Counted from the stretch's first letter, positions 5,245 through 24,429 are shown. The stretch is 64,000 bases of DNA from Pseudomonadales bacterium (GCA_965221105.1 OZ244871.1:767673-831672), one strand, 5' to 3'. Translations and numbers: made by a program. The notes: a model not told the origin generated them from the sequence alone.

Positions 5245-5364
5245 ACAATCGGGTGTAAGGTGATGTCCCTGCTATTGCCAACCAGTGCAAGACATTGCCT
5301 GCACCAGCGCCGGTCACTCCCACTCTATTGTAAATAAGCCTTTTTTATCTTTTATATTCAATGG

Positions 5365-7294: not shown

Positions 7295-10200
7295 ATGCAA
7301 AATTCAGGGGCAGCACCGGAGCAAGGACAAATAGTTAAACTGCGCCATAAGATATGGGCGGTCACTGCAGTCAATAAAACCTCCGTTCAAGCAGGCAGTG
7401 CCATCCATAGGGTTGCCCTTGAATGCCTGAGTGATGATGCGCTCGGAGACGATATTCAAGTTATATGGGAACGAGAAATCACTCCCCACCTGATTGATTC
7501 AACATCCCTGCCAGACGTAACTGCTTACGACGAACCACAACTCTTCGATGCTTTTATACGGTCCCTTCAATGGGGGGCAAGTTCGCTGGCGGTGGGGGAT
7601 ATGCTGCAGGCCCCGTTTCGGGGTGGCGTACAAATGGAAGAGTATCAGCTTGCTCCCGTCATCCGGGCCACCAATATGCCCCGGGTGCGCCTCTTATTAG
7701 CTGACGATGTTGGCCTGGGTAAAACCATAGAAGCAGGCTTGGTCACCCAGGAGCTCATTCATAGCCACAGGGCCAGTCGAGCGCTGGTTATCTGCCCTGC
7801 GCATTTGAAGCTCAAATGGGTCGATGAGATGGCCGAGAAGTTTGGCCTCGAGTTCAAAATCATTGATCGGGATTCCGTCCTGAAAATGAGAAAGGAATAT
7901 GGCCCCAGTATTAACCCTTGGGCTAGTTTCCCGCGACTTATCACATCGATCGACTATCTAAAGACCGAACATCCTCGCCGTTTATTCGATGAATACACCC
8001 GCCGTCGGCGAGAGGAAAGCCCCAACAACCGCCCCTGGGATCTCCTAATTCTGGATGAAGCCCACAACGCGGCTCCGTCAGGCAAGAAACAATATATTCG
8101 TGACTCTGAGCGTACCTCACTGCTCCGGTCAATATCTGAGCAATTCGAGCACAAGATGTTTCTCACCGCGACACCGCACAATGGTTACCGCGAGAGTTTC
8201 ACAGGGTTATTGGAGATCTTGGACAACCTGCGTTTTTCACGTGGCACGGACCTCGACAAGGCTCAACTATCCGCCGTGACTGTTCGCCGATTAAAGCAGG
8301 ACATCTCAAATCCAGATGGCACTCCTCGCTTTCCTAAAAGGGTCATCCTTCCGCGTGACGAAATCAGTGACCCACAACTTTACGTCAAGCTGAATGGCGA
8401 TGAACAACAGCTGTTTGACTTGCTAAAAGCCTATACCGAAAGTCGCTTGAGTTCCGTCGATAAACGTTCCGAGCGGCCACTGCAGTTTATCCTGACCTTG
8501 CTGAAAAAACGGGCGTTGTCTTCCCCGTTAGCTCTCCGCGAGAGTCTTATAGTTCATACGCAAAATGCAGGCGTTAAAGATGAACTCGGCATTGGAGAAT
8601 CACTATTTAACAGCTTTGAGCAAAAGGAGGCCGAAGACTGGAGTGATGACGAGGAGAAAGAAGACAATCTCGAAGCAGCTACCAGCACAGCATCCAAACT
8701 CATAAGTGATCTAACCGACGAAGAAAAACGATTTCTGCAGGAAATGTATGAAATCGTCGATAAGCAGGTTTCTCACTTCTCGATTCAGGAGGACAGCAAG
8801 GCCACTGCGTTGGTCTCATGGATCGATAACAATCTACGGGTTGATGACGAGTGGAACGGCGAACGTGTCATTATATTCACCGAGTATAAACACACGCTCA
8901 ATTACCTTGAACGCGTGTTGGAAAAACACGGATACCTGGATGCCACACGCACCATTGTTGGCGGCATGAAAGACGGCGATCGCCAGCGAATTAACGATGA
9001 ATTTCAGGCTCCTAACAGCGAAACGGGTGTGCGAATTCTCCTCGCAACCGACGCCGCCTCGGAGGGTGCCGACTTTCAAAAATACTGCCGAAACCTGATT
9101 CACTACGAAATTCCATGGAATCCGATACGCCTGGAACAAAGAAACGGTCGAGTAGATCGTCATGGGCAAAAAGCGGACGAGGTCAGGATTCACCACTTCG
9201 TCTACAACAATCAAGAAGACTCTGAGTTTCTCAAACACATCGTCGACAAAGTTGAAACCATCAGAAATGACATTGGCAGCGTTGGCGCCCTAATTGCTGA
9301 AAATGTTCGGCGAAAAGCGCTTGGCCAGTCCGTCAATCTCGCGGCCATAGATGATGATGCGCGCAGAAAAATGGCGCAGGAAGAAATGACCATTGAAGCC
9401 CGAGAAAATGAAGGCGTGGCTCAAATGGTTGAGGCATTGAGCAAAGCACGATCTGCACTCGACATTTCTGATTCGAATCAGTTACAGCTATTGGATCAGG
9501 CGTTGCGATTGGAAGGCTGCTCTGATGCCATCAAACAGTTGGGTGATGACGAGTTCATTCTATTTCAGGTTCCCATCGCATGGACCGAATGCAAGACATA
9601 CCTCAGCTCAGATTACCTGCAGAAACGCCTATCGTTTAATCGCACCAAAGCCAGAGATGACGATGCAATAGGCATTGTCCATCTGGATCATCCATTGATG
9701 CGGCGAGCCATTTCCACTTTTCGTATTCAGATGTGGGGAACGCAGTCGTCCCGACAACACCTTAGCAGAGTCACCATTACAGAATCCGATACAGTCTCGT
9801 CCCCAGCCGTCATCGCCTGGGGGCGGCTTGTACTTTTGGGCCCAGAACACAATCGCCTACATGAAGGGCTGGTCAGGTGCCAACTCCTAATTCGCGATAA
9901 TGAATTGGTTGAACAGGAAATTTTGCGTCCGGAGGACGCAACCCCTTTCACTGGAGACATTGCCAATATCCAAGAGCTAATCCATCCCCAACTGGAAGCC
10001 GTTACAGAGAAACTTTCAACTACCGCCGACGCGCAAGCCAGCGTGCTGATCGATACCCTGAAAGAACGCGGCGAACTCGCTCGTAAACACGCCCAAAGCC
10101 TAGCAACAGAACGGATTACTGCCATTAGAAACGCCATCAAGGAATGGCAGAAACGCTCCGCTGATCTGCAGATGCAATTCGCGTTTGATGACGAAGAACA

Positions 10201-10363
10201 GGAGCAACGAGAACAAGACCTGCTTGCGTTGCAGCTCCGGCTTGAGCAACTCCAACAAGAGCGAGAAACAGAGCCAAAACGCCAGCGAAATCTATATAAA
10301 GTAGCCGATCAAAGAATGTACCCGGTTGCTCTGGAAGTGATACTTCCCAAGGAGGGCAACTGA
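7295..10363 (+). CDS. drmD: DISARM DrmD, SNF2-family helicase
   Basis: SNF2 motifs are present: LLADDVGLGKTIEAG, LILDEAHNA, LATDAASEGADFQ and EIPWNPIRLEQRNGRVDRHGQ. The assignment to DrmD comes from the adjacent drmMI and the drmA/B/C genes. Confidence 0.8.
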   Translation: MQNSGAAPEQGQIVKLRHKIWAVTAVNKTSVQAGSAIHRVALECLSDDALGDDIQVIWEREITPHLIDSTSLPDVTAYDEPQLFDAFIRSLQWGASSLAVGDMLQAPFRGGVQMEEYQLAPVIRATNMPRVRLLLADDVGLGKTIEAGLVTQELIHSHRASRALVICPAHLKLKWVDEMAEKFGLEFKIIDRDSVLKMRKEYGPSINPWASFPRLITSIDYLKTEHPRRLFDEYTRRRREESPNNRPWDLLILDEAHNAAPSGKKQYIRDSERTSLLRSISEQFEHKMFLTATPHNGYRESFTGLLEILDNLRFSRGTDLDKAQLSAVTVRRLKQDISNPDGTPRFPKRVILPRDEISDPQLYVKLNGDEQQLFDLLKAYTESRLSSVDKRSERPLQFILTLLKKRALSSPLALRESLIVHTQNAGVKDELGIGESLFNSFEQKEAEDWSDDEEKEDNLEAATSTASKLISDLTDEEKRFLQEMYEIVDKQVSHFSIQEDSKATALVSWIDNNLRVDDEWNGERVIIFTEYKHTLNYLERVLEKHGYLDATRTIVGGMKDGDRQRINDEFQAPNSETGVRILLATDAASEGADFQKYCRNLIHYEIPWNPIRLEQRNGRVDRHGQKADEVRIHHFVYNNQEDSEFLKHIVDKVETIRNDIGSVGALIAENVRRKALGQSVNLAAIDDDARRKMAQEEMTIEARENEGVAQMVEALSKARSALDISDSNQLQLLDQALRLEGCSDAIKQLGDDEFILFQVPIAWTECKTYLSSDYLQKRLSFNRTKARDDDAIGIVHLDHPLMRRAISTFRIQMWGTQSSRQHLSRVTITESDTVSSPAVIAWGRLVLLGPEHNRLHEGLVRCQLLIRDNELVEQEILRPEDATPFTGDIANIQELIHPQLEAVTEKLSTTADAQASVLIDTLKERGELARKHAQSLATERITAIRNAIKEWQKRSADLQMQFAFDDEEQEQREQDLLALQLRLEQLQQERETEPKRQRNLYKVADQRMYPVALEVILPKEGN

Positions 10364-13300
10364 TGGCCACCAATAAACGTGTCGCCAAGCGGCAACATCG
10401 CTGGCTATCCAGTGTAGAAATTACCGGTGTTGTTTTGAGTGAACCGGTACTGGCAGATGCGGGGAATTTCAGATCCCTAGACAAAGCTGAGCTGGCCAAC
10501 TTCCGAAAGCAACGGGAAATCTGGAACCTGCCTAAGGGCATGGTTGAGGGCGATGGGCAACCTGCGTGGATAAATTTCATCCTCGAAGATTTTCTGGGGA
10601 TCAAGGACACTGAATACTGGCAAGTTGGCGCGTCCATTCCGTCCAACATGGTGGTAGCCCTTCCTGAGCAGCAAGAAACGCTTCGCCCTAGTCGGATCCT
10701 GCTAGACGAAGGGCAGCCCATCATGTTGTTGCTTGAAGTGCCACGTGAGCAATCACTCGACAAGTCATGGTTACAGGGCAAAGGGCGCTGGAAGGCGTCG
10801 CCAACCACCAAGTTTGACCGGTTACTTCGCGAAACAGGCATAGAACTCGGTTTGCTAACCAATGGTGAGGCATGGCGTCTCGTTGTCGCTTCTCCATCTG
10901 AAACCACCTCCTGGATGACCTGGACCGCTCAAACCTGGAATGATGATCCGCTCACCCTGGCCGCCTTTAAAGACCTGTTCGGTGAATCACGATTTTTTGC
11001 CGGGCCTCGCGATCAGGTTGTACTGGAACTTATCAAGCAAAGCCGCCAGCGACAGCTGGATGTGGCCGACCAGCTCGGTAATCAGGTTCGTGAAGCGCTG
11101 CAGATTCTAGTTCACGAGCTGGACAGAGTAGATGCCGAACTGGGTGGAACCTTCCTACAAGGTTACGGTGAAGCTGAAATATTTGAATCCAGCGTAGCCT
11201 TCATCATGCGCCTGCTGTTCACGCTCTACGCTGAAGAAAATGGTCTGCTGCCCCATGGCAACGTTAACTATGACAGGGCCTACGGCGTCCTCCATCTGCT
11301 GACAGAACTGGAAGAGACAAAGCGGCTCGCCCCGGAGAAGCTCAAACATTCTTTTGCCGCCTACGCCCGGCTGCTGGCCAGTTCCCGCTTGCTGCATGAC
11401 GGCAGCATAGATCCTGATATTCGTATCGCCGCCCACGGTGGCCAGTTGTTTGACCCCAATCGCTACCCCCTGCTGGATGGCCGAACCAAAGAAGGCGCCT
11501 GGCCCACAGAGATTCCCGAGCCGCCAAAGATCCGAGACGCGGCTATACGCGATATTTTAAGAAGCCTGAAATATGCCAGGGCTGATGGAGTGCGCCAGCT
11601 GGTGAGCTATCGCACGCTTGCTGTGGAACAGATTGGCCACATGTATGAAGGGCTGCTGGATCGCCGGGTTGCCCGGGCCCCTACTAATAGAACCCTGCTG
11701 CTATTGCAGGGGGGCAGCAAGATTAAGGAACCAGAACCCGTCGACGCAACAGTGTTTGCCGGTTTGGACCAGGCGGCACTAATCAAGACCATTACCAAGC
11801 ACACCAGTAAAACCGCCGGCACCATTAAAAAAGTCCTGGAACGCGACGAAGAACGCCATACTCTGGCAAACCTAGGTACTGATGACGCCGAACTGCTGGA
11901 GCAGGCTAAACCGGCCATTCGTTTTGTGAAGGATCTGGGCATAGTTAGGCCAAGCGGGCTCTATGTTTGCCAAGGGCAGGACCGCCGCTCCAGCGGTGCA
12001 CACTACACACCGCCCACCCTGACCGAGCCGGTCGTGCGCCGCACCCTTGAGTACCAGGTGTATGTGAATGTGGAAGGCAAGCCAGGCCTGCTCCAGGAAC
12101 CCAGGTTAGTCAAAACTCCACAAGAAATACTCAGCCTCAAGGTCTGTGACCCAGCGATGGGGTCAGGTGCCTTTCTCGTCCAGGCTACGCGTTATCTGGC
12201 AGAACGACTAGTAGATGCATGGGAACGCACGGCCGCAGAGCAGCAAGATACCATTCTAACGATGCCCTTTGCGACACCGTCACAGGGTGAAGCCACCGAA
12301 AATTTGATGCCGGAATCCCGCGAGGAGCGCATCGTCTTTGCACGCCGATACGTGGCCGAGCGCTGTATCTACGGGGTGGACATAAACCGGCTGGCCGTGG
12401 AGATGGCAAAATTATCACTGTGGTTAACCACTCTCTCCACCGACCGTCCGTTCACCTTTGTGGATCACGCACTAAAACACGGCAACTCGTTGATTGGACT
12501 ATCACCGGAGCAAATCCGCAACTTCACTTGGAAACCCATCACCAATGATTTTGGGCCGCTTTTTGCAAACGCTGAAGAACACGGGGTTGAAGAGGCCGAG
12601 CAACACCGGGAAGCCATTCACGCAATTCCTGACCACGATTTTATCCGTAAAGAAAAAGAGAACCGCATTGCAGAAGAGGCATTGTCCAGCCTGCGACTAA
12701 AAGCCATCTTAGCTGTAGCCGCATTTTTTAATGGATCTAATAACAAGCAGCGCGAAACTAATCTAATTAGTTATCGCTATTGGCTGGAGCAGCTCGACAA
12801 TGACGAAAAGGCGGTTACTGAAGTCGAGAAAGTATCGAGAGGTTTAACTACGGGCGAGCCTCCGATAATGCCTTTTTGTTGGGTAATTGAGTTCCCGGAA
12901 GTATTCCATCGAGATAACGGCGGATTTGATGCGCTAATAGGTAATCCTCCTTTCTTAGGAGGCAAGAAAATCAGCACGAATTTAGGAAAAGGAGTGGCAG
13001 ATTATCTCGATAGATTCAAAGATGGTAAAAAGGGCGCCTGCGATCTTATTACCTATTTTCTATTACGATGCGCCTTCGATTTGCTTGCTGACACTAAGGT
13101 TTCAAGCATCGGCCTCATTACTACCAATACGATTTCACAAGGAGATACTCGCGAACTTGGATTGCTAAGGATATTGCGATCTGGTTTTACCATTTACCAT
13201 GCTACGCCCTCATTAGCCTGGCCTGGAAAGGCTAATGTAATAGTTTCAATCCTACATGTAAAAAGGAAACCTTGGCATGGAGAACGGACCCTGGGACACG

Positions 13301-14292
13301 AAAAATGCGAGTTAATATCGTCTTATTTGGACTCAATCCCCTGCAATGAAACCCCAGCGCCCATAAGCAAGAATGCTGGATTATGCGGAACTGGAGTATA
13401 TGTATATGGCAAGGGTTTTGTTCTATCAAATGAGATGGCTGATGAACTTCTCAATGACCCCATGAGCCGAGAAGTAGTGAAACCCTATCTGGTAGGCGAC
13501 GATATAAACAATACAAAGGGATCTTCTCCTAGCAGATATTGCATCGATTTTGGAAACAATGATATTGAGCAAGCAAGACAGTTTCAAAAAGCTTTTGACC
13601 ACGTAACAAAAACAGTCAAGCCTGAGCGTGACAAACTAACAGGTCAAATACACGAGAAACGATATTGGATACACTGGGATCGCCGCGAAGAGTTCTTTAA
13701 TGAATTAAAGGGAAAAGAGTTTTATTTCGGTAGGTCACGCGTCAGCAATCTCCATCTTATTGAAAAGATACAGCATGAGTGGCTTCCCTCAGACGCTGTG
13801 GTGATATTCGCAACTGACAAATACTCTGTGTTTGGAGTTCTGCAATCAATCTTTCACCAAGTGTGGGCTGAAAGATTTTCCACAACAATGAAGAACGACC
13901 TAAGGTATTCCATTAGTGATTCATTTGACAATTTCCCTTTCCCAAGCAGCAATTCGCTTGAATCCATTGAAGGTCCCGCCAAGGCTTTTTATTCGGAAAG
14001 AAAGCAGGTGCTAGATAGCCAAAGCTTGTCCCTTCGCGAATTACAAAAAATGGTCGACAATGAAGAGTGTTCAGATTCCTTTATTCTGGGATTCCGAAAT
14101 TCAATTGTAAGTCTCAACAAGCACATAGCAAGAGCATACGGTTTCGAAGACATAGATCTTGAATTCAGTTTCAGGAATGCCATATGGCTACCACATAATC
14201 CACACTGCTTCACTATTAGCATGCCGACGAGAGATAAAATCATAGAGAGGTTGCTAGAGCGGCATTCAAGACAAACTCAAACATCATCTTAA
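10363..14292 (+). CDS. drmMI: DISARM DrmMI, large N6-adenine DNA methyltransferase (Eco57I/PglX-like)
   Basis: Motif I is VCDPAMGSGAFLV and motif IV is LIGNPPFLGGKK. The protein is 1,309 aa, and its ATG overlaps the drmD stop codon by 1 nt. Confidence 0.8.
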   Translation: MATNKRVAKRQHRWLSSVEITGVVLSEPVLADAGNFRSLDKAELANFRKQREIWNLPKGMVEGDGQPAWINFILEDFLGIKDTEYWQVGASIPSNMVVALPEQQETLRPSRILLDEGQPIMLLLEVPREQSLDKSWLQGKGRWKASPTTKFDRLLRETGIELGLLTNGEAWRLVVASPSETTSWMTWTAQTWNDDPLTLAAFKDLFGESRFFAGPRDQVVLELIKQSRQRQLDVADQLGNQVREALQILVHELDRVDAELGGTFLQGYGEAEIFESSVAFIMRLLFTLYAEENGLLPHGNVNYDRAYGVLHLLTELEETKRLAPEKLKHSFAAYARLLASSRLLHDGSIDPDIRIAAHGGQLFDPNRYPLLDGRTKEGAWPTEIPEPPKIRDAAIRDILRSLKYARADGVRQLVSYRTLAVEQIGHMYEGLLDRRVARAPTNRTLLLLQGGSKIKEPEPVDATVFAGLDQAALIKTITKHTSKTAGTIKKVLERDEERHTLANLGTDDAELLEQAKPAIRFVKDLGIVRPSGLYVCQGQDRRSSGAHYTPPTLTEPVVRRTLEYQVYVNVEGKPGLLQEPRLVKTPQEILSLKVCDPAMGSGAFLVQATRYLAERLVDAWERTAAEQQDTILTMPFATPSQGEATENLMPESREERIVFARRYVAERCIYGVDINRLAVEMAKLSLWLTTLSTDRPFTFVDHALKHGNSLIGLSPEQIRNFTWKPITNDFGPLFANAEEHGVEEAEQHREAIHAIPDHDFIRKEKENRIAEEALSSLRLKAILAVAAFFNGSNNKQRETNLISYRYWLEQLDNDEKAVTEVEKVSRGLTTGEPPIMPFCWVIEFPEVFHRDNGGFDALIGNPPFLGGKKISTNLGKGVADYLDRFKDGKKGACDLITYFLLRCAFDLLADTKVSSIGLITTNTISQGDTRELGLLRILRSGFTIYHATPSLAWPGKANVIVSILHVKRKPWHGERTLGHEKCELISSYLDSIPCNETPAPISKNAGLCGTGVYVYGKGFVLSNEMADELLNDPMSREVVKPYLVGDDINNTKGSSPSRYCIDFGNNDIEQARQFQKAFDHVTKTVKPERDKLTGQIHEKRYWIHWDRREEFFNELKGKEFYFGRSRVSNLHLIEKIQHEWLPSDAVVIFATDKYSVFGVLQSIFHQVWAERFSTTMKNDLRYSISDSFDNFPFPSSNSLESIEGPAKAFYSERKQVLDSQSLSLRELQKMVDNEECSDSFILGFRNSIVSLNKHIARAYGFEDIDLEFSFRNAIWLPHNPHCFTISMPTRDKIIERLLERHSRQTQTSS

Positions 14293-15111
14293 TCAATACT
14301 CAACAAGAACTGCTTTATACTTCAACAGATCAAAATGCTGGGCAATCCGTTCACTGGGTTGCCCTTGCATCCTTACGCCCATTTCCATGTTGCGATCCAG
14401 CGCATACATAGTCAGGTTGGCCGAGGTCACCAATGCATCGTGACGATCGGCCACCAGCACTTTGGCGTGCAGTTTCAGGTGCTTTTCATCGGCGGGAATT
14501 TTCCAGGTTAGCAGCTGCGGCAATGGCGCAGTCTTGGGCCAAAGCGATACCAGGGTATCTCGATTGTTTTTTCCGTAACCCTTTTCGCCTTCGTCCAACA
14601 CCATCGTCACCTTAACGCCCCGCGTTACTGCATCTGCAATTAACTCGATGATGTCATTAATAATGCCCTCATGGTCTTCCTTACCCGCCAACCAGTAGCC
14701 CACCACCAAGAGTTCGGATTGGGCCGCAGCTATGATGTCCTGCACCACTTGGCGGGTGGCCCGCAAATAGGAGCCTTCGACCTTGGGCCCGCTCCAGACG
14801 ACTTCAGTTGGTGTTGCCTCGCTCGCTGTGAGTACTACAACTTCCTTTAAGGCGGCCAGTTGAAGAGCAAATAGTGTATTACTCTGTGAATCAAACTGCT
14901 CGCTCCAAATCCGAAGCAGGCGCGTTAGTGCGGCCTGCACGCCAGTTCGTCCTGCCGCCAACTTCGAAATGCTAGCCGAGCCAGATTGCGCGGTAAGTAA
15001 ACCAGACTCAATGGCAGAAATAACTTCACCAAAAGCGCCAGCATTGATCAACTGCCGAACACTCTGTGCCAACGCCATTGCGGCGCTATCAATTGAATCC
15101 GGCATGGCCAT
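14293..15111 (-). CDS. drmC: DISARM DrmC, phospholipase-D-family (HxK) nuclease-like protein
   Basis: A single HKD-type motif is present (HLKLHAKVLVADRHDALVTSANLT). The protein is about 270 aa and lies directly downstream of drmB. Confidence 0.8.
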   Translation of the reverse strand: MAMPDSIDSAAMALAQSVRQLINAGAFGEVISAIESGLLTAQSGSASISKLAAGRTGVQAALTRLLRIWSEQFDSQSNTLFALQLAALKEVVVLTASEATPTEVVWSGPKVEGSYLRATRQVVQDIIAAAQSELLVVGYWLAGKEDHEGIINDIIELIADAVTRGVKVTMVLDEGEKGYGKNNRDTLVSLWPKTAPLPQLLTWKIPADEKHLKLHAKVLVADRHDALVTSANLTMYALDRNMEMGVRMQGQPSERIAQHFDLLKYKAVLVEY

Positions 15112-15114
15112 CTC

Positions 15115-16914
15115 CTAATTGAAATAAGCCATATCGCTGTATGCCATAGTGGGTACCAGGAAGTTCCTGTCCAGGAATCGGTTAAAGGCTTCGCAGGAAG
15201 TTTCTGGCGCCAGCACACAGGCATGGCAGGCCGCACCGTTGATGGTGGCATGCACATCGGGCTGGTGATCGGCACAAAGGGGATCCGATGAGCAGCGCTT
15301 GGCGTTCTGAAGGGCGCCGTGGATTAAGTTGGGGAAACGTTCTTTTGTGCCTAGATCGACTAGACCGCCCAGACTGCCCTCCGAGTCGGCACTAGCGGTG
15401 TATAACAAGATACCTGCCATTTTGCGTTCGGGGTCAGTACTGCTGTAGATACGCTCACGCACTGAAGATTCCGAATAGCCGCAATCCAGAGCAAGCTGAC
15501 GCATCAGCACATGAGCCAGGCTATGCAGCAATACATAACGAGCACCTGGGAAATCATCGGCATCAACACCGCGCTCAGTTGCCCATTCTCTATATTTTTG
15601 CTCTATGGCTGCGGCCCATTTTTTAACTGCAGTCTCCGCCTCCCAGTTAGTCAGTGCTTCATCCTTCAACTCGATGAAAATGCCCTCACCACGTACTTCC
15701 ACCGCTGGCAGCCAGTCCTGGCGCTCTTTGTAAATTGGTGCACGTGAGGCACCCATGCCATCGTCGTCCATACCAGATGCGTAGTCGATACGGGTGAAGC
15801 TTGTAAGCGCCCTAACTTCCAACAATTTTCTGGCCAATACAATGCGCTCGATTTTGTCAGTTAAAAAATCCGGGACTTCACCAGCCTCCAGGAAGAAATC
15901 GGACTGGTCGCCCTGGTTGCTCCCCTCAATATCCCGAAAGGCATGCCATTCCGGTAGGCGCAAGTCGATTTCGTCTGTCTCAATTTCTCCCCGTTCTTTG
16001 AGCAGGGTCTGCCAGATATCTTCGGCCTTGAATTCAGCCAAGGCGGGAAACATTTCCATATCAAGCAGGGTTTGCAGCTTGGTCAGAGAATCGATTTTTT
16101 CAACCTGATGCTGTGGGCACTTCTTAAGTGCTTGACCGACAGGACTGGCCGCCTCTTTTATTGACAAGGCACTGCGAACCAGCGGAAACCATCCGTTTGT
16201 GGCTCCGCGTTGAATCGCCCGCACTTGACCAGCATGGCTACATTCGTGGGGGTCTTTATTTTTTATGCCCAGCCATGGTCTCTTGCGCGTACATTCTCCC
16301 AGCGCCAGGCTGCGGTTTTCGCCAAATGCATCGCTCACACTGCGTTTGGCATCGCAAGCACAATAGATCCAGATATCGGACACAGAACCAGTATTGCCAG
16401 AATAGACCAGGCGCATACGTTTTTTACAGCTTGTATCGGCATCCCTGTGGACGTAGGCTCGCCAAGGGAAATCATCGATATGACCACTTGGACAGGCCAC
16501 CACAAAAGGCGCAGGAACTGTGGGAGCCCGGAATCTGCCGCGCCCCTTACAATTGGGCGCTTTGCACTCCATTTCTTGTGATTTCTCGTTGTATTCAACC
16601 AGGCCTTCGCCCGGTTCAGACAGAGTGGCGCACTCTGGATGGGTGCAGACCTGATAACGTGGAAACAAAAAGGTCGGTACAGTACCGCGTTTGGTAAAAA
16701 AACTTCCACTGGCGGGCTCGGCGGAGAAGAACCGCTTTACCTTCAGTGCTCGCTGGAGACGTGGCTCGTGAATGACTTGGTCTTCATCAAGCCGCCAGCC
16801 ATCAATGCCTGCGACAATGACCGATAAAGTCTGCAGATCAACTATAGAACCTGGGCCAAAGGTTGTGATCACCTGGCTTGGACGAACGTCGCCGATTGCT
16901 CTTTTACTCGACAT
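15115..16914 (-). CDS. drmB: DISARM DrmB, DUF1998-type protein
   Basis: The N-terminus reads RPSQVITTFGPGSIVDL. There are Cys-rich clusters and a C-terminal CHACVLAPETSCEAFNRFLDR that is typical of DUF1998. I prefer the ATG at 16914 because a GAGGAG sits 7 nt upstream. The ORF could also start at the GTG at 16923. Confidence 0.8.
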   Translation of the reverse strand: MSSKRAIGDVRPSQVITTFGPGSIVDLQTLSVIVAGIDGWRLDEDQVIHEPRLQRALKVKRFFSAEPASGSFFTKRGTVPTFLFPRYQVCTHPECATLSEPGEGLVEYNEKSQEMECKAPNCKGRGRFRAPTVPAPFVVACPSGHIDDFPWRAYVHRDADTSCKKRMRLVYSGNTGSVSDIWIYCACDAKRSVSDAFGENRSLALGECTRKRPWLGIKNKDPHECSHAGQVRAIQRGATNGWFPLVRSALSIKEAASPVGQALKKCPQHQVEKIDSLTKLQTLLDMEMFPALAEFKAEDIWQTLLKERGEIETDEIDLRLPEWHAFRDIEGSNQGDQSDFFLEAGEVPDFLTDKIERIVLARKLLEVRALTSFTRIDYASGMDDDGMGASRAPIYKERQDWLPAVEVRGEGIFIELKDEALTNWEAETAVKKWAAAIEQKYREWATERGVDADDFPGARYVLLHSLAHVLMRQLALDCGYSESSVRERIYSSTDPERKMAGILLYTASADSEGSLGGLVDLGTKERFPNLIHGALQNAKRCSSDPLCADHQPDVHATINGAACHACVLAPETSCEAFNRFLDRNFLVPTMAYSDMAYFN

Positions 16915-16919
16915 CCCTG

Positions 16920-19900
16920 TCACTCCTCGTCACTCAAATAAAAAGCCGCCGTTGGCTCGACTTCGCGCAATGAGCCCGGCGTTGACCACTGGCCTTCATT
17001 GTCGGTACCCGAGGTCTTTAACAAAACACGCGCGTTGTTTGGGGGACGCTCCCCACTCTTTAGCCAGGAATATCGTAATAAATCGTCAGCATAATGTGCC
17101 CAGTCGTCACGGCTCGACATGAGTCGTTCTTTAACCAATTGAGCGTTTTTCTTACCCACCAGATCCGCTGCACGCAAGGTGATATCTGTGATCATTAAAT
17201 CCGTGCCGGGAGATGCCGGGTCGAAATTCTGGGCCTGAACTTCACGAGCCATGTTTTGCGCGCCCAGCCGCTGTAATGCCGCAAAGGCACCTCGCAAGCC
17301 CCTGTCCAAAGCCCGCGAAGAGAAAGGTGTCACACTGATAGCTTCAACATAACGGTAAAGCGCCGCATGGTAAGCCCGAAAATGTTCGTAATGGGAAAGG
17401 TCCCTTGCACCCAGCCAGTTGTACATGGTGATGACCAGGCCGGGATGTTTACGGCCAACTCGACTGGTTGCCTGAATATACTCGGCAGTGCTTTTCGGTT
17501 GACCTGTGACAACCATCAACCCGAGCCTGTCGATATCTACACCTACCGAAATCATGTTGGTTGCCAACAGGACATCGACAGGGTACTGCTTGTCCTTTTC
17601 TCGAGGAAACTTATTATCCAACCGTTTCAATAGACCAGGAATCCGCCAGGAATCGAGGCGACTGGTGAGTTCATCTGGATCATTGATATAGCGCTGCGGG
17701 AATCCTCGCTGTTGCGCCAGATAGCGTAGGCGCTTTTTAATGTCGTCCTCGACCAGCCTGCGTGCGCCACCGAGCGCACGTAGACTGTTGAAGTAACCCA
17801 CCACCGTTGCATACGGATCCGCGGCTTCAGGATCTCGGCTGATTTCTGCCTCCCCCGCCGCAAGTAGTGCCGCATAGACACGAACCAGCAGGGTTTTTGT
17901 ACTAGAGCCCGGTGCATTTAAGCCCACATACAGACGCCCAGCCATTTTATCGTCGTCCAACTTGATCTCTTGCTCTTTGGCAAAGAAAGAATCTTTGGAG
18001 GAAAGGCCGCTGGGCGGGAAGATGGCCAGGTCGCGGTTGTAAAGCTGCCGAATTTGTTCGTGAGCTCGCCGTATGGTCGCAGTAGACGCAATAATCTTGG
18101 CCGGTATTGTGACTCCGGTTTCGTCTTCAACCCGACTAAGGAAATCGACGGCCGTCTCATATAACCCGACCATGGTGCCTAAGGGGCCGGAGATTAGATG
18201 GAGTTCATCCTGAATAATCAGTTCTGGGGGAACTAGACGGCGCGCTGGTTGATCATCTCTTACAACCCGCTGATTCGGTTTCTCACCATGGCCAGGAGTT
18301 AGATGGCCGTAGGTGGGGCTGTAGCGATTCCGCAAGCCAAAGAGCGCTTGGGTTTCACCCTTGAAAGGCATGCGGGCGAATTTGTCGACCGTGGCTATGA
18401 CCAAAGAGGGGCATTCGCGATAGATTTCATCATCCACGACCACGACGGGTAAGCCTTGGTCGTTAGACTTGCGGGCGCAAAACTCACATTTTGGATTTGG
18501 ACAGCGAACGAGTGTCCTCAGTCTTGCATTGTCGAAGTCATAAGTTTGATTTTCTGGTTTGCCTTGTGGGGTCACTAGGGATGTACCGCAACGCGGGCAT
18601 GATACCAATTGAACAGGGCTGCCCTCCCTGGGTTTCTTACCTTCGTCGAGATCTTCAAGCGCTTTTTGCGATGACTTCGCATCATTTGGTGTGGTCGCCT
18701 TACCCACCCACAAACCAATCTTGAAGGGTTCATCACCCCACTTTTCGGTATTGGATTGGCGTACCAATTCGCATGCACAAATGAGGGCGGTGGCACGCTG
18801 GAACTGCTGAACCGTCAGCAGTCGCAATGTATAGCGCATGATAATGGCAACACCTGCGCTGGAATCGAGACCATTTACATCGCCCCGCAGTCGGCGATAT
18901 GCCAGAGTGAATGCAGCCAAACCAAGGTAGGCTTCTGTTTTTCCGCCACCCGTGGGAAACCAGAGCAAGTCGACTAACTTGCGATCCGCAGCTACTTTCT
19001 CACCTGGCTCCGGCTTTTTGACCATACTGGCAATGTTTAGCAGGATGAAACCCATCTGAAATGGTCGCCAAGTGCGATTGTGTTGCTCATCAAAATCCGC
19101 CGGATTACCAACAATTTCTCCGCTATCCCGATTGCGACCAGCCCATATGACGTGTATGCGTTGATCCCACATCACATGATTGGCAAACAGGAAAGCCTCG
19201 AATGCTTTAGGCTCATTTCTGATGAGTTCCAAACCAGCGCGCATTCTGCGTGCAGCATCAGCACATGACTCGATTAAAACTCTTGCCGTGTCTTGGTTTT
19301 CTGGAGTGGAGACAAATGGTTCACCTTTTGCTTCTTGCTTCCTGTCTTCAACCCATTGCTCGTAGGACAAAATCAATGGTTCGATAGCACTGAATAAGTC
19401 GCTTGGTGTTGAGAACTTGCTCAGCTCGCGCATGTCCAGGTTCAAGCCTGGTATGTCACCACTTTGTGCAATTAAGCTTGGCACCTCAAAGTTAGGGATA
19501 AAGTCAGTAAATAAGATGCTGGCTCTATCACGTTCTGCATTGAGTCCATCCCAGCCGGCAGCCACACCGTGGCCCGTCGCAAATTCTTTAGCATCCCGAT
19601 AGAGGATGTTCGCTGTAGCGATCTCAGGGTCTTTGGAAAGGTCCTTATCAAAATCCTTGGCGATAAATATTGGAGCCGTATCAGACGAGAACACCTCCAA
19701 TCTTGGCTGCAAGAGCCATTGCTGATCTTTTGCTCTGTCGGAATCTTCACCTTTGGGACGCCTATTGACCAAGAACAGACTGATCGCTTTTGCTCCATCG
19801 ATGTGATGAACAACACCCTCCAAGAACACCTGGGCATCACCATCGCCATCTTCTCCGGGTCTGCGAAAGCCATCAGGAGTTATTGCGATACTTGCTGGCG

Positions 19901-20351
19901 CATTTGATTTTGACAGGGGAATCGCGCTGATCTTTCCTACCGCATTAACCGGTATACCCTCGACCAGAACAGATCGCTGATACCTCTGCCAATAAGTACC
20001 GCCTTCGGATTCATTTTTTTCACGACGATAATCTCCCCAAGTAGCCTTGGCATTTATCGTTTCAGTATCGGTAGAGACCAGGAAAGATAAACCCATAGAC
20101 GAAGGGCTAAAGCCCACAATCAGCGGAGGTTGTGGCTCGTACTCACCACCTTCATCATCATCACTCCCGGCCGCAAACTGGTCATTTTCAATTTCCGGTA
20201 TCTCGGTATCCAATGGAGCTAGGCGCCCAACGATATAACGGGTGGTGGGAAACTCTGTTATCGTTTCGTCTAGAGAAGTAGGCCCCATTAACTCGCGTGT
20301 AAGGGCCTCGAGAATTCTGGAGCGCGACTCTCGCTTACTGCTATCAGGCAT
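16920..20351 (-). CDS. drmA: DISARM DrmA, DExH-box helicase
   Basis: Helicase motifs are present: FPTGGGKTEAYLGLAAF (motif I), QDELHLISGPLGT (motif II) and QATSRVGRKHPG (motif VI). The ATG at 20351 lies in ATGCCTGA, overlapping the stop of the upstream methyltransferase. The ORF track extends to 20426. Confidence 0.8.
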   Translation of the reverse strand: MPDSSKRESRSRILEALTRELMGPTSLDETITEFPTTRYIVGRLAPLDTEIPEIENDQFAAGSDDDEGGEYEPQPPLIVGFSPSSMGLSFLVSTDTETINAKATWGDYRREKNESEGGTYWQRYQRSVLVEGIPVNAVGKISAIPLSKSNAPASIAITPDGFRRPGEDGDGDAQVFLEGVVHHIDGAKAISLFLVNRRPKGEDSDRAKDQQWLLQPRLEVFSSDTAPIFIAKDFDKDLSKDPEIATANILYRDAKEFATGHGVAAGWDGLNAERDRASILFTDFIPNFEVPSLIAQSGDIPGLNLDMRELSKFSTPSDLFSAIEPLILSYEQWVEDRKQEAKGEPFVSTPENQDTARVLIESCADAARRMRAGLELIRNEPKAFEAFLFANHVMWDQRIHVIWAGRNRDSGEIVGNPADFDEQHNRTWRPFQMGFILLNIASMVKKPEPGEKVAADRKLVDLLWFPTGGGKTEAYLGLAAFTLAYRRLRGDVNGLDSSAGVAIIMRYTLRLLTVQQFQRATALICACELVRQSNTEKWGDEPFKIGLWVGKATTPNDAKSSQKALEDLDEGKKPREGSPVQLVSCPRCGTSLVTPQGKPENQTYDFDNARLRTLVRCPNPKCEFCARKSNDQGLPVVVVDDEIYRECPSLVIATVDKFARMPFKGETQALFGLRNRYSPTYGHLTPGHGEKPNQRVVRDDQPARRLVPPELIIQDELHLISGPLGTMVGLYETAVDFLSRVEDETGVTIPAKIIASTATIRRAHEQIRQLYNRDLAIFPPSGLSSKDSFFAKEQEIKLDDDKMAGRLYVGLNAPGSSTKTLLVRVYAALLAAGEAEISRDPEAADPYATVVGYFNSLRALGGARRLVEDDIKKRLRYLAQQRGFPQRYINDPDELTSRLDSWRIPGLLKRLDNKFPREKDKQYPVDVLLATNMISVGVDIDRLGLMVVTGQPKSTAEYIQATSRVGRKHPGLVITMYNWLGARDLSHYEHFRAYHAALYRYVEAISVTPFSSRALDRGLRGAFAALQRLGAQNMAREVQAQNFDPASPGTDLMITDITLRAADLVGKKNAQLVKERLMSSRDDWAHYADDLLRYSWLKSGERPPNNARVLLKTSGTDNEGQWSTPGSLREVEPTAAFYLSDEE

Positions 20352-21591
20352 AGACGTTTTCCTTTTGCTCGCGTTTCTTTGCACCTGGACCTTTCCCTGT
20401 CCCGGGATGTGCATCGTGAGCACCAACCAACGTCAGATACTTTTTAGGCACAGCCTTAGGCTTTTCAGGCGGAGGACAGTCATTTCTCTTTTCAGGAATG
20501 AGCTTAAGCTGCTTGCGTACACGTTCACCAAAAAACTGTCGGCGTATTTCCAACCCAAAAAGTTCGCCAATAGCCGGAGGTACCGCATTGCCGATTTGCT
20601 TATGAGCTTCCCGTCGATCACCAGCAAACTGATAATCATCCGGGAAAGTTTGAAGACGGGCGAGTTCTCTAACCGATAGCAATCTTCCCTTCCAGTGAAA
20701 AGGGCCAGTTGCCGGACCTGGTTGTGCTTGAATTGTCCAGCTAGGCTTGTCTTTAGCCAGCTTTAGGAGAAACGACCAAAAACGTGTTCGCCAACCAAAC
20801 AGGGGTAATCCACCCGATTGTTCTGTGTGCCACTGGTAGTTTTGCCCTTCAGGTATGGTTGGCAATAAATCGCCCCATTTCCCAGATGGCTTAACGTCAT
20901 CAGGCCAAATATCGACATCCAAATCACCAATAGCATCCCAAACAGTTCTGTAGGGGCTTTTTGTTTCTTTTGTTATGGATGGATCGAAGTGTGTAGGAGC
21001 AGGAAGGCCGAACCGGGTGCCATCTCTACTTGCAATGATAAATACCCGCTCCCGCGACTGCGGCACGCCGTAATCAGCGGCATTAACTGCTATCACGTGA
21101 GGTTTGTAGCTCGTTTTCTTATCCCCGTTAATCCTGTTCAATTCATTTTCTAAAAGTTTTAAGCCTTCGTCTTTATCCGAATAGGCTATCCCCTTAACAT
21201 TTTCGAGCAGAATAACTTGTGGCAGAGCTTCGCGAACAAATTCAAGATAGGCTTTCAATGTCTTGGCGCGAGGATCTGACAACCGCTCAGTATCGCCTGT
21301 CACCCAGTAGCCCGATTTTGAGAAGGGTTGGCAAGGTGGTCCGCCAGCGAGTAGCGTAAGCTCCCTCGGCTTTAGACCGGATTGTTTCAATAATTGACCT
21401 GGTGTTAACGCGTGAATATCTCCGGGACAAGCTAGTTTCCACTTTGGATGGTTCAGGGTGAGCGTTTGCTGCGCGATATGATCGATCTCAACGCATAGTT
21501 TGTTGGTAAAGCCTGCCGTACCCAGCCCAATATCTAGCCCTCCGGCACCGCTGAATAGCGAAATCATTGTTTTGATAGGCTTCTTACTCAC
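20344..21591 (-). CDS. drmMII: DNA (cytosine-5)-methyltransferase, DrmMII-like by context
   Basis: C5-MTase motifs are present: ISLFSGAGGLDIGL (I), GGPPCQPFS (IV), ENVKG (VI) and QIGNAVPP (X). The GTG start overlaps the stop of the HTH gene (GTGA). Confidence 0.75.
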   Translation of the reverse strand: MSKKPIKTMISLFSGAGGLDIGLGTAGFTNKLCVEIDHIAQQTLTLNHPKWKLACPGDIHALTPGQLLKQSGLKPRELTLLAGGPPCQPFSKSGYWVTGDTERLSDPRAKTLKAYLEFVREALPQVILLENVKGIAYSDKDEGLKLLENELNRINGDKKTSYKPHVIAVNAADYGVPQSRERVFIIASRDGTRFGLPAPTHFDPSITKETKSPYRTVWDAIGDLDVDIWPDDVKPSGKWGDLLPTIPEGQNYQWHTEQSGGLPLFGWRTRFWSFLLKLAKDKPSWTIQAQPGPATGPFHWKGRLLSVRELARLQTFPDDYQFAGDRREAHKQIGNAVPPAIGELFGLEIRRQFFGERVRKQLKLIPEKRNDCPPPEKPKAVPKKYLTLVGAHDAHPGTGKGPGAKKREQKENVYA

Positions 21592-21818
21592 AAATGATTC
21601 TCGTTTTTTTGGTATTCCAGTAGTTCACCAACGGAAATTGAAAGATATTCACAAAGTGTGTTGATCGTTTCTAAGTCGACACGCACCAGCGTTTCATGGT
21701 ACATCCTGGTTAGTGTCCCCCGGTTGATTCCAGTGTCTCTGGCGACATCTGAAATTTTGAGCTTTCGCTCACCCAACACCCTAGAGAGGTGACACTTTAT
21801 CATCGGGATATCGCCCAA
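21588..21818 (-). CDS. Small XRE/Cro-type HTH protein (controller-like) heading the minus-strand DISARM unit
   Basis: The HTH_3-like segment is KLKISDVARDTGINRGTLTRMYH, in an ORF of 76 aa or less. The ORF is translationally coupled to the C5-MTase. Confidence 0.7.
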   Translation of the reverse strand: MGDIPMIKCHLSRVLGERKLKISDVARDTGINRGTLTRMYHETLVRVDLETINTLCEYLSISVGELLEYQKNENHL

Positions 21819-22028
21819 ATTGCTCTACAGAAGATCATTTTTTGCTTTATACGCTACATATTACACCATTATGCCGTCTGGGCAAGAAGTTCATCGCCGT
21901 GGGTCGCTAGATATAACAATTCCTCATGTTTTCTTCTTTTCTGCAGTCCTTTGAGCTTCCGACACCAGCCCATAACCAACGCACCAGCATGATTGGGGCC
22001 TCACCGCATTCACCATGATTCACTTTCC

Positions 22029-24317
22029 TTAACTACCACGCATGGTAATAATCTTCCCACCAGCATTTTCGATCGCGTCAAAAACCAAGTCCCGAACATT
22101 ACTCAAGAACTCCGAAGACTGAGGCGTCAACTCGATACCGGGTATTGGTGCAGCGGTTTGGTAGATGTTTCGAACATCGCGTGCGCGATCATACGAAGAC
22201 CCTCTGCCAGCATGCTCGAAGGCACGCGACCAATCGATTAAGTGCTCCTGGATCAATCGTTCCATCGCCAACGAATGCAGGGACTGGAACACCTCACTGC
22301 GAACAACATCGATCGCCTCGGACTCCTCCTCTTCGTTATTACCATGGGGATCCCACTGCACGGGTTTATCGAGAAAGCGGGAAATCCCCTCACTGAGGCG
22401 GGCGATCAATTCTGCGACCGGTCTCAGGTAGTCGTACTCCACACCCCCCATCCTTGCGACACGCCTCGTCAACGCCTTGATACGGGTCCAGTGTTCCTTC
22501 GAGACGCTCTCTTGATACTGGTAACCAAGTCTGGCGTTCCATAACGACTGGAATTCCTGTGTCGCCGCTTGCACCGCAAACGACAGACTCGCGGGATCGT
22601 AAACCGGTGCAGCTGCCGGCGGCTCGAAGGGTTCGATAGCACTGCGGAAAAAATTCACCAGAGCGCCGAGTTGTGAGAAAACCCCTTTTGGGATCTTTGA
22701 AGCAGGCTTGTCCAGCGCGCCTAGCATGAAGCACCGGCTGTACAGGTGCCCTTCCATGCTATTGATCACGGAATCGCCCACCGTCGTACGCATGTTGCTA
22801 AGCGCGTTCTTCACCGAAGCCAAAACATGATCGCGTCGATCTGCAAAGCCGGAGAAATTGACGCCTTTAACCTGATCGAAATGGGTAAACGCTACGGCCA
22901 ATTTGTCCTGGTGGCCACTGGTTGCAACTGAACGTACTACAGAAAGAGACCAAGGCTGCATGGGTTGCTCGGCGTTATCAACGAGGAGAATAACATCAGC
23001 CATCTGGTATCGACTGGTGAAGTGCGTGGACACATCCGCCACCGTTTCGGACACATGTCCCAAGCCTTCTCCATCCATGAGCACCAGCCCCCTTGTCTCG
23101 CCAATTGCCTCGGCAAAGAACGGACCGCGAACCCGCACACCTTGCACGAAGGGTGTCAGTAATCGCCCGAATGCTGGCGCATAGTTGCTCGAAAACCAAC
23201 GAACTTGATTGATGAAATCTTCCCTATCGGCAGATTCGAACGTCCATCTCTCGGGCCATTTTCCCTTTCGCTTGAGTTCGCCGGCCGTCAGGTAGTCAAA
23301 CCGTTTCAAGACCTGATCGATGATGTCTTCGATGAGAGCATCGTAGCCTGGCATTTTTTCGAGGATTTCCTCAAAGTAATCCAATACCAAGTCGAGATCC
23401 TCTCCCTTGAGGCGCAATACATCTTCACCCCACTCTTCCGAGACCTTGGCTATGGCGACTTCTGCTATCTCTCTGATGCGCTTGGCATACTCCGAGAGTT
23501 TCTCCTGCATCTCTCGGCGCTCATCAGCTGATGGGTAGGCACCCTCTTCTGAGACTTGTTCAGATTCTGTTTCAGATTGCTCCTCTACGTCATCGAAACC
23601 CCAGTCGTCATCGTCTGCCTGAATCTCCTGCTCGGACCAAGACCCCAAGATATAGCCCAACCGAAAGCGCTGATCCCTATGGTTGAGCAACTCCTTGACG
23701 ACCTTCTCATCTGATTCACCCCGCCAGACAGCCTTGCAGGCCTCGTCGATTGATTCCTGGGTATAGGTCCGCACGGTTCCTTCGGGGAAGAAGGTCACGA
23801 CAGACTGAAAATCACCATAATCCGTAATGACCTCGATATCCGATACGGTGGTTTTGCCAGTGGAGGTCGATGGGAAACGATCTTTTTCCGGATGGGAGCC
23901 GATCATGAGTCTTAATAACGATGTCTTGCCTGCTCCGGTGGTCCCAAGGAATAGCACCTTGGTGAAGCCTTCTTCTGCAGACGGAATCGGGATTACTTCA
24001 TCTCTGGCCTTCCAGGGATCAAGGTGTGCATCAGCCACCATGGGATCATAAAAACCATCGACTATTACCTTGGCAAACTGACGTTCTGCCCGTCCTTTCT
24101 GGCTAAGACTCCAATACGATTCATCGCCGAGAAGCACGTTCATTTCGCTGACGAGCTTGTCTGCTTCCGCTTCGTCCGTGGTTCCCAGACCTCTTCTCAC
24201 CTTGATTCCGCTGCTGCTGCGCGGATCTTTCTTTACAACAGGATGACGGAAGGTAACCGCCCAGGCACTTCTACCCTGCGAACGAGTTTTTGAAGCCGAA
24301 TATCGTTGTTTCACCAT
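22029..24317 (-). CDS. Uncharacterised GTPase-like P-loop NTPase with an integrase-arm-like N-terminal domain
   Basis: Walker A GTTGAGKTS is encoded at 23919-23945. A DxxG-type motif (LVLMDGEGLGH) sits at aa 412-422 and a [NT]KxD-like AFTHFDQV at about aa 477. The N-terminal 65 aa (GRSAWAVTFRHP...GIKVRRGLGTTDEAEADKL) resemble arm-type DNA-binding domains of tyrosine integrases. The ATG at 24317 is preceded by GAGGAG. Confidence 0.6.
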   Translation of the reverse strand: MVKQRYSASKTRSQGRSAWAVTFRHPVVKKDPRSSSGIKVRRGLGTTDEAEADKLVSEMNVLLGDESYWSLSQKGRAERQFAKVIVDGFYDPMVADAHLDPWKARDEVIPIPSAEEGFTKVLFLGTTGAGKTSLLRLMIGSHPEKDRFPSTSTGKTTVSDIEVITDYGDFQSVVTFFPEGTVRTYTQESIDEACKAVWRGESDEKVVKELLNHRDQRFRLGYILGSWSEQEIQADDDDWGFDDVEEQSETESEQVSEEGAYPSADERREMQEKLSEYAKRIREIAEVAIAKVSEEWGEDVLRLKGEDLDLVLDYFEEILEKMPGYDALIEDIIDQVLKRFDYLTAGELKRKGKWPERWTFESADREDFINQVRWFSSNYAPAFGRLLTPFVQGVRVRGPFFAEAIGETRGLVLMDGEGLGHVSETVADVSTHFTSRYQMADVILLVDNAEQPMQPWSLSVVRSVATSGHQDKLAVAFTHFDQVKGVNFSGFADRRDHVLASVKNALSNMRTTVGDSVINSMEGHLYSRCFMLGALDKPASKIPKGVFSQLGALVNFFRSAIEPFEPPAAAPVYDPASLSFAVQAATQEFQSLWNARLGYQYQESVSKEHWTRIKALTRRVARMGGVEYDYLRPVAELIARLSEGISRFLDKPVQWDPHGNNEEEESEAIDVVRSEVFQSLHSLAMERLIQEHLIDWSRAFEHAGRGSSYDRARDVRNIYQTAAPIPGIELTPQSSEFLSNVRDLVFDAIENAGGKIITMRGS

Positions 24318-24429
24318 CACCGTCTCCTCTGGGGCCAGCCGCCTATCGTTGTTCCACGTTGCCGCGGCTTCATCGAACCCTGAGCCACTAAAATTCTCTG
24401 AAATTGTGGGTCTTGATTCTAAATAATTC

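Follow-up and report, generated by a model that had tools for sequence, protein, structure and literature searches.

The 64,000 nucleotides of a Pseudomonadales bacterium analysed here (GCA_965221105.1, OZ244871.1:767673-831672; hereafter the window, with positions counted from its first letter) contain, at 7295-21818, what is very probably an intact class 1 (type I) DISARM (a defence island system that is associated with restriction-modification), anti-phage and anti-plasmid by homology, together with a C5 cytosine methyltransferase that is DrmMII by context and a small helix-turn-helix (HTH) regulator. The locus is real but ordinary: its subclade is already annotated as DISARM, and its experimentally characterised kin is the system of Serratia. 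As a discovery, one more intact copy of a recognised DISARM subtype has little weight. The comparison with its relatives indicates that the split of DISARM into class 1 and class 2 is leaky, that class 1 systems have taken up C5 methylases from at least two apparent families and that, within the clade of the window, the specificity module of the adenine methylase diversifies while the recognition region of the cytosine methylase stays fixed.

Gene content and gene calls

The map of 7295-21818 recovered the seven open reading frames (ORFs) that an earlier interpretation of the same DNA, made from its letters alone (the sequence-only reading), had listed there (Table 1). The five genes that PADLOC requires for DISARM type I, namely DrmA, DrmB, DrmC, DrmD and DrmMI, are all present, so that its definition of the system applies. 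The same definition prohibits DrmE (PMC9252829), for which no model matched any of the 10 proteins scanned with PADLOC, the ORFs of 7295-21818 being all assigned to other families; because of this lack of a DrmE match, the locus is not class 2, its C5 methylase notwithstanding. The sequence-only reading had described a complete DISARM that joins a C5 methyltransferase to DrmD and DrmMI, the markers of class 1, and is built as two convergent and tightly packed units, and PADLOC, Pfam and the sequence agree with that description. It had also staked the claim on two proteins, of which the one of 602 aa does match the DUF1998/MZB and DrmB models, and the one of 1,143 aa the DrmA models. Moreover, the latter matches the DrmA chain of the solved Serratia complex (PDB 7s9v_A; E = 2e-215, query 81-1134 against chain residues 233-1299), as DrmB matches its partner chain (7s9v_B; E = 6e-121). 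The nearest solved structures of DrmD are those of RapA, and the C-terminal half of DrmMI resembles MmeI (PDB 5hr4).

Catalytic motifs were intact in every case checked, including GLGKT and DEAH in DrmD, DPAMGSGAF (at residue 596) and NPPF (at 861) in DrmMI, GGGKT and DELH in DrmA, the HKD motif HAKVLVAD in DrmC, and FSGAGG, PCQ, ENV, QSRER and GNAV in the C5 methyltransferase. As regards gene starts, the longest-ORF calls over-extend drmA (TTG, 1168 aa) and drmB (GTG, 602 aa). The HTH gene is present and overlaps the methyltransferase gene in GTGA, as had been proposed, and its start is more likely the ATG at 21803 than the TTG at 21818 from which it had been read; the resulting protein of 71 aa has the length called in five related loci.

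Table 1. Features of the DISARM locus, with positions in the window.
Feature	Position	Strand	Description
drmD	7295-10363	+	1022 aa; SNF2/RapA-like helicase; PADLOC PDLC02621, 1086 bits; Pfam SNF2-rel_dom and Helicase_C
drmMI	10363-14292	+	1309 aa; N6-adenine methyltransferase; PADLOC PDLC02643, 1315 bits; Pfam MmeI_Mtase, Eco57I, MmeI_TRD
DrmMI variable C-terminal module	12913-14292	+	aa ~851-1309: second half of methyltransferase domain, target-recognition domain and tail
Tail-to-tail junction of the convergent units	14287-14298	.	sequence TAA then TCA
drmC	14293-15111	-	272 aa; phospholipase D (PLD)-family (HKD) putative nuclease; PADLOC PDLC02595, 412 bits; PLDc_2 (PF13091), E = 3.9e-14
drmB	15115-16914	-	599 aa from ATG; PADLOC DrmB, 693 bits; PF09369 MZB (formerly DUF1998), E = 2.5e-11
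drmA	16920-20351	-	1143 aa; DExH helicase; PADLOC PDLC02575, 951 bits
C5 cytosine methyltransferase (DrmMII by context)	20344-21591	-	415 aa; Pfam PF00145, 177 bits
HTH protein, Cro/C1-type	21588-21803	-	71 aa; putative regulator of the minus-strand unit; Pfam HTH_26, 76.6 bits
Candidate promoter/operator block 5' of the HTH gene	21804-21875	-	upstream-region alignment

Gene coupling and the upstream block

The order of the genes suggests two transcription units, drmD-drmMI and HTH-C5MT-drmA-drmB-drmC (C5MT being the C5 methyltransferase gene), each of which would be translationally coupled through overlapping or nearly abutting codons. A check of the sequence found the junctions as the sequence-only reading had given them. 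Besides the GTGA overlap, the methyltransferase and drmA genes overlap in ATGCCTGA, the TGA of drmA is followed after 5 nt by the ATG of drmB, which is preceded by GAGGAG, and the TAG of drmB is separated from the ATG of drmC by the 3-nt gap GAG. On the plus strand, drmD and drmMI overlap in TGATG, with one base in common. The two units meet with zero intergenic bases, the drmMI stop (TAA, 14290-14292) abutting that of drmC (TGA, read as TCA on the plus strand, from 14293), and a consensus scan gave no terminator-like site near this junction, at 14.3 kb. The same junction takes the form of a 4-nt overlap in V. cholerae and E. huaxiensis and of a ~11-nt overlap in B. diffusa, and in T. turnerae the two genes lie 5 nt apart.

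When the sequences that precede the HTH gene in six genera were aligned, conservation proved to be confined to the last ~70 nt. This block holds a -10-like TAATAT (21863-21858) and a dyad, short and imperfect, that reads TGATCT-N5-AGAGCA (21837-21821) in the window and TGACCT-N5-AGGTCA in V. cholerae. As promoter and operator it is a candidate only, missed by the promoter scan and by the inverted-repeat tool, in the latter case because the 6-bp arms of the dyad are too short. The HTH protein is 87-93% identical and equally placed in T. turnerae (L001), a Chromatiales metagenome-assembled genome (L005), Aquirhabdus (L006), V. cholerae (L085) and E. huaxiensis (L087), an HTH_26 gene of equal length occupies the same position in B. 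diffusa (L091), and in the more distant Pontibacterium locus (L010) an HTH protein of 49% identity accompanies the C5 methyltransferase. The HTH protein probably autoregulates the HTH-C5MT-drmABC unit at the conserved upstream site.

A conserved cassette with a minority layout

Homologues of the window DrmA at 84-96% identity occur in Candidatus Thiodiazotropha, Teredinibacter, Burkholderia, Aquirhabdus, Vibrio cholerae, Enterobacter, Aeromonas, Pseudomonas, Microbulbifer, Acinetobacter and Desulforhopalus. Many of them are named 'DISARM system helicase DrmA' by NCBI, and the nearest protein-cluster mates, from Candidatus Thiodiazotropha species, belong to genes that already carry DISARM names; the host itself is probably a sulfur-oxidising symbiont akin to Candidatus Thiodiazotropha. 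The arrangement HTH-C5MT-DrmA-DrmB-DrmC facing DrmMI-DrmD was found complete in Aquirhabdus, V. cholerae (L085/L086), E. huaxiensis (on the chromosome) and B. diffusa, and Photobacterium (L007) has the same convergent order, with no HTH gene detected. The loci of T. turnerae and the Chromatiales genome end inside DrmMI and DrmA, respectively, and both agree where present. DrmA of this type was found on 22 contigs of V. cholerae. The novelty that had been seen in the convergent layout is therefore lost, and NCBI annotation gives these genes DISARM names.

Protein identity across the loci of the clade is 76-95% (DrmA 88-95%, DrmB 83-94%, DrmD 80-84%, C5 methyltransferase 81-93%, in at least seven genera), and the DNA of the cassette is ~70-80% identical along its whole length across genera. 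These two levels of identity mark the cassette as an old unit under purifying selection, which has moved between Gamma- and Betaproteobacteria. The 14.5-kb locus had no nucleotide match in complete Escherichia coli genomes or in PLSDB plasmids, and a protein search of plasmids returned only distant DrmA (at most 42% identity), so the cassette is not an E. coli element and has no close relative in PLSDB.

To place the layout among DISARM loci at large, 80 loci around DrmA homologues in species-representative genomes were annotated with the seven window proteins, and counts were restricted to the 38 with at least 9 kb on both flanks. DrmMI was present in 28 of the 38 and the C5 methylase in 11, with four loci having both. 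DrmMI lay on the strand opposite DrmA in two of the 38, both from the window's clade, from which the convergent layout appears as a trait of this clade, recurrent but a minority form. Class 1 loci with both methylases show at least three arrangements: besides the convergent one, DrmD-DrmMI-DrmA-B-C faces C5MT-HTH in Pontibacterium, and C5MT-DrmD-DrmMI-DrmA runs on one strand in Shewanella (L002), in L056 and in the Serratia-type locus L088, which was reached by searching with a 403-aa stretch of Serratia DrmA rebuilt from the PDB alignment; another locus so reached, L089, is badly fragmented. Three other loci (L014, L026 and L047) lack DrmMI and carry, upstream of DrmABC, an SNF2 helicase with a weak likeness to DrmD (25-27% identity) and, less than 2 kb downstream, a long C5 methylase ORF (2.0-2.7 kb), which in L014 is on the opposite strand; as another mixture of class 1 and class 2 markers, they show the two-class scheme to be leaky. 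A passage of the Serratia work states, after Ofir et al. 2018, that drmMII sometimes occurs alongside class 1 DISARM (bioRxiv 10.1101/2021.12.28.474362), and reviews speak of DISARM with 'DrmMI and/or DrmMII'.

Two methylases of contrasting conservation

Judged from its genomic company, the C5 methylase is part of the DISARM system. It has roughly 8,000 homologues in the protein collection, and orthologues of 61-93% identity stand next to DrmA or DrmD-DrmMI-DrmA in at least 10 loci and four arrangements. Its overlap with drmA recurs in the gene calls of T. turnerae, V. cholerae, E. huaxiensis and B. diffusa, and across arrangements its family tracks the DrmA lineage down to 36-61% DrmA identity. 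The region between motifs VIII and IX (bins 226-300) is 76-100% identical across the clade and Shewanella, and 56-96% identical in the more distant Pontibacterium, L008 and Polyangium (L004) loci; with such conservation, the specificity of the cytosine methylase is probably common across the clade.

DrmMI is a mosaic: within the clade, identity is mostly 64-98% over residues 1-850, whereas residues 851-1309 fall to 10-54%, with the exception of Aquirhabdus, where most bins keep 50-88%. Along the cassette, DNA identity drops to 39-51% only at 12819-14318 of the window. Such a pattern is the usual signature of specificity swapping, and on these alignments the specificity module of DrmMI is one exchanged between hosts.

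Predicted mode of action and points against it

Experimental tests of DISARM concern the systems of Serratia and Bacillus. That of Serratia sp. SCBI, a class 1 DISARM with drmMII, has been characterised genetically (Aparicio-Maldonado et al. 2021, bioRxiv 10.1101/2021.12.28.474362), and this dual-methylase precedent removes the novelty from the hybrid of class 1 and class 2 proposed by the sequence-only reading. In Serratia, DrmMI places N6-methyladenine (m6A) at ACACAG and DrmMII 5-methylcytosine (5mC) at MTCGAK, the host genome is only partially methylated, and deletion of both methylases produces no toxicity or autoimmunity; DrmA and DrmB give most of the protection, unmethylated motifs enhance targeting, every gene has a part in a single phenotype, and each of the two methylases promotes methylation by the other (bioRxiv 10.1101/2021.12.28.474362). 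By analogy, the tolerance of the double deletion weakens the suggestion that two marks would be required for self-protection.

The structure of the Serratia DrmAB complex (PDB 7s9v and 7s9w) led to the proposal that a trigger loop of DrmA autoinhibits the complex, that DrmAB loads on single-stranded DNA with a 5' overhang and that V1296 senses bases (Bravo et al. 2022, PMC9142583). In the window DrmA, V1131 aligns with this residue and is invariant in 15 homologues, and the segment R1129-E-V-E-P1133 is likewise invariant in the homologue alignment. The N-terminus of the protein is ~150-182 residues shorter than that of Serratia DrmA, and it keeps the motif RY(I/L)VG(R/K)LAP, followed by an acidic stretch (~residues 47-80) at the position of the Serratia trigger loop. 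A shorter autoinhibitory loop, analogous to the Serratia one, is plausible on this alignment.

Following the Serratia model, DrmMI would place m6A on a non-palindromic motif of the host DNA and the C5 methylase 5mC on a motif of its own. The DrmA-DrmB complex, held in check by the N-terminal loop of DrmA, would load on incoming DNA exposing single-stranded 5' ends, would be activated more strongly when this DNA is unmethylated and would block replication of the invader. DrmD, as a RapA-like SNF2 ATPase, and DrmC, as a PLD nuclease, would enhance defence and are probably not essential.

Several observations weigh against this picture of a working, regulated DISARM with DrmMII. The functional statements are all transferred from a system whose proteins are ~32-44% identical to those of the window. 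A consensus scan gave no promoter for either unit, with fewer promoter-like sites than in shuffled sequence, and the window's version of the operator dyad is short and imperfect. Among relatives, the sequence upstream of drmD lacks conservation and the alignment shows no conserved promoter there; moreover, an IS256-like (Mutator-family) transposase gene starts 268 nt upstream of drmD, and its vicinity may have disturbed the drmD promoter. As for the C5 methylase, its best PADLOC matches are the generic MTase_II (256 bits) and DruM of Druantia (244 bits), above DrmMII PDLC02650 (181 bits, E = 1e-53), and its C-terminus is 33% identical over 91 aa to the methylase of L088, of which only the last 111 aa are readable. 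Judged on that C-terminal fragment only, the window methylase appears to belong to a family different from Serratia-type DrmMII. With a C-terminus only 33% identical, the target motif and role of the Serratia enzyme are not transferable to it, and the model scores together with this value make it seem that class 1 DISARM recruited cytosine methylases more than once.

Alternative readings of the locus

The locus could also be taken as two separable systems placed tail to tail, a self-sufficient, class-2-like HTH-C5MT-DrmABC and an independent DrmD-DrmMI pair, in which an SNF2 helicase and a type IIL-like adenine methylase would act in the manner of ArmA-ArmB or of modules of bacteriophage exclusion (BREX) type, each with its own mark. 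The nearest outgroups, L008 and L009 (DrmA 56-61% identical), speak for it, as they carry the orthologous C5MT followed by DrmA and DrmB, with DrmC detected only in L008 and with no DrmD or DrmMI within the flanks examined, which span 10 kb to either side, or 7.8 kb on the downstream side of L009. So does Polyangium, which has C5MT-UvrD-DrmABC without DrmD and DrmMI. In Pontibacterium and Shewanella, DrmA and the C5 methylase are closer to those of the window than in canonical class 1 loci, while DrmD and DrmMI are not (31-33% against 33-37% in distant class 1 loci), and this discordance suggests partly separate histories for the DrmD-DrmMI and C5MT-DrmA modules. The DrmMI specificity module was swapped independently of the rest, and ARMADA joins a similar SNF2 and methylase pair to another effector. 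Against two systems stand the near-constant company that DrmD and DrmMI keep with DrmABC, as in the 28 of 38 DrmA loci with DrmMI, the single phenotype served by all the Serratia genes, where the methylases help each other, and the inheritance of the 14.5-kb cassette as one block of uniform DNA identity across genera. We regard two separable systems as unlikely, and prefer to read the locus as one DISARM.

The same comparisons bear on how this DISARM arose. The sequence-only reading had imagined a drmD-drmMI pair fused onto a class-2-like core, for which the loci lacking DrmD-DrmMI (L008 and L009) and the discordant identities of Pontibacterium and Shewanella are suggestive; they lend it modest support and are not phylogenetic proof. 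In other relatives, DrmD-DrmMI or HTH-C5MT lie in differing positions and orientations. A further idea, as doubtful in our view as that of two systems, is a two-tier self-marking built from separable parts, with an autoregulated HTH-C5MT-DrmABC unit of conserved 5mC recognition and a tail-to-tail DrmD-DrmMI unit of swapped m6A specificity, the two dampening each other by convergent transcription so as to couple methylase and effector levels. Mutual dampening is possible because their junction has neither a terminator nor an intergenic base. The literature searched contained no description of such a two-tier arrangement for DISARM.

Both L008 and L009 also encode a conserved protein downstream of the DISARM core (L008 16089-19256, 1,055 aa; L009 15413-18607, 1,064 aa), 40% identical between them and in L008 placed directly after DrmC. 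This ~1,060-aa protein matched no PADLOC model and nothing in Pfam above threshold, and could be an unrecognised DISARM accessory at the place of DrmMI-DrmD.

With still lower probability, the genes could be silent or decaying cargo of an island rich in insertion sequences (IS), giving no working defence in this host. Identical 1040-bp IS copies bracket the region, the Mutator/IS256-family transposase gene lies directly upstream of drmD, a neighbouring SNF2 gene is truncated and consensus promoters were not found. Against decay stand seven full-length ORFs whose lengths match those of relatives in other genera, whose checked motifs are intact and whose coupled junctions are kept.

Least probable of all is that HTH and C5 methylase form a type II modification module foreign to the system, an orphan or a remnant in which a controller protein and a methylase have lost their restriction enzyme, beside an ordinary class 1 DISARM: the generic MTase_II and DruM matches, the likeness of a small HTH gene overlapping its neighbour to restriction-modification controllers and the Pontibacterium HTH-methylase pair, located at the other end of its locus in opposite orientation, would suit it, yet the methylase stop overlaps the drmA start here as in four relatives, its family follows the DrmA lineage and the ORF map of the locus contains no restriction-enzyme gene or remnant.

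The surrounding island

The DISARM locus lies in an island that adjoins guaA. Two 100% identical direct repeats of 1040 bp (4286-5325 and 27644-28683), each encoding a 256-aa rve_3 (IS481/IS3-like) transposase, bracket 22.3 kb with the look of a composite transposon, which contains the DISARM locus, the IS256-like transposase, for which the inverted-repeat tool found no terminal repeats, and another three genes. The right end of both repeats takes in the 3'-terminal 12 nt of guaA (codons EWE and stop), so that a 3' piece of guaA is duplicated at 5314-5325.

One of the three genes (25060-27084, minus strand) encodes a 674-aa SNF2 helicase that scores 'DrmD_b' at 701 bits, under the curated cut-off of 950. 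It was considered as a second DrmD of the DISARM and rejected: it matches 952-aa proteins at 97% identity over their first 661 aa and then diverges, which makes it a truncated copy of a helicase from a different type of operon. Its intact relative in L090 sits in an operon of BrxR (WYL), SNF2, a 1159-aa N6_N4 methylase and a ResIII helicase, and the truncation and this context make the gene a remnant of a second methylase-associated defence system. Between it and the DISARM, 22029-24320 (minus strand) encodes a 763-aa protein with the P-loop GTTGAGKTS and a weak PADLOC mad8 match (E = 7.6e-5), with no Pfam or NCBIfam match, and whose exact sequence is absent from a collection of 15 billion proteins; it is possibly an uncharacterised defence gene. 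A divergent XRE-type HTH gene (24430-24798, plus strand) lies beside it.

In other hosts the cassette keeps different company: genes for TnsA-like, TniB and TniQ proteins of Tn7-like type in T. turnerae (L001 4920-9674), TnsE in V. cholerae (L085 23347-23432), and serine recombinase and ParB/RepB-like genes in B. diffusa (L091 4677-8019). The cassette thus travels on different mobile elements, either Tn7-like, of serine-recombinase type or, in the window, as an IS-bracketed island.

Outside the repeats, an ORF at 53-1585 (plus strand), perhaps a fragment, encodes an SNF2-type helicase in its C-terminal half only, 1768-2952 (minus strand) encodes an AAA_14/DUF4143 ATPase, and 3805-4149 (minus strand) a small protein that combines Phd/YefM antitoxin and UPF0175 domains; with these genes, the defence and mobile-element character reaches the start of the window. 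On the other side, a 348-bp tandem duplication with 98% identical copies (36156-36842) lies inside a 659-aa ORF (35188-37167, minus strand).

Comparison with known systems

The head of the minus-strand unit recalls the circuits of type II restriction-modification controller (C) proteins, for which it is typical that a small HTH gene overlaps the gene after it. A short conserved dyad, in the window a candidate operator, likewise lies between a -10-like element and the start codon. The window differs in that its HTH protein is of the HTH_26 (Cro/C1) type, in that the gene precedes a methylase and a helicase effector instead of a restriction enzyme, and in that its operator is a candidate only.

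Class 2 DISARM, as in Bacillus paralicheniformis (drmE, drmA, drmB, drmC, drmMII), shares with the window a C5 methyltransferase by a DrmABC core. The window, however, lacks DrmE, its methylase is only a second-tier match to DrmMII models, and this gene is upstream of drmA, whereas in class 2 it is downstream. With the canonical class 1 form of DISARM (Ofir et al. 2018; PADLOC type I) the window shares the five required genes and the absence of DrmE, but the canonical loci of the sample are mostly colinear (drmD-drmMI, a gap, then drmA-drmB-drmC) and without a C5 methylase. ARMADA II (armABCD; PMC13463889) has a similar SNF2 and methylase pair, with armB as its most variable component. In that system helicase and DUF1998 are fused in ArmC, together with Vsr and EEP domains, whereas the window DrmA, DrmB and DrmC are separate; moreover, ARMADA has a UvrD-like ArmD and neither DrmC nor DrmMII.

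The closest counterpart is the Serratia system, which has the same set of components, DrmD, DrmMI, DrmA, DrmB and DrmC plus a C5 methyltransferase, and whose DrmA and DrmB are clear homologues with the critical valine conserved (V1296 in Serratia, V1131 in the window). The proteins of the Serratia-close locus L088 are nevertheless only ~32-44% identical to those of the window, and its genes run colinear on one strand (C5MT-drmD-drmMI-drmA-drmB-drmC), whereas in the window the drmD-drmMI pair is turned round to face drmC tail to tail. The Serratia trigger loop has 57 residues and the acidic segment of the window DrmA is shorter, and the HTH gene at the head of the window operon may be a further difference. 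Such comparative details could guide the choice of a second tractable dual-methylase DISARM, for instance the V. cholerae or E. huaxiensis copy, with which to study how two marks are read.

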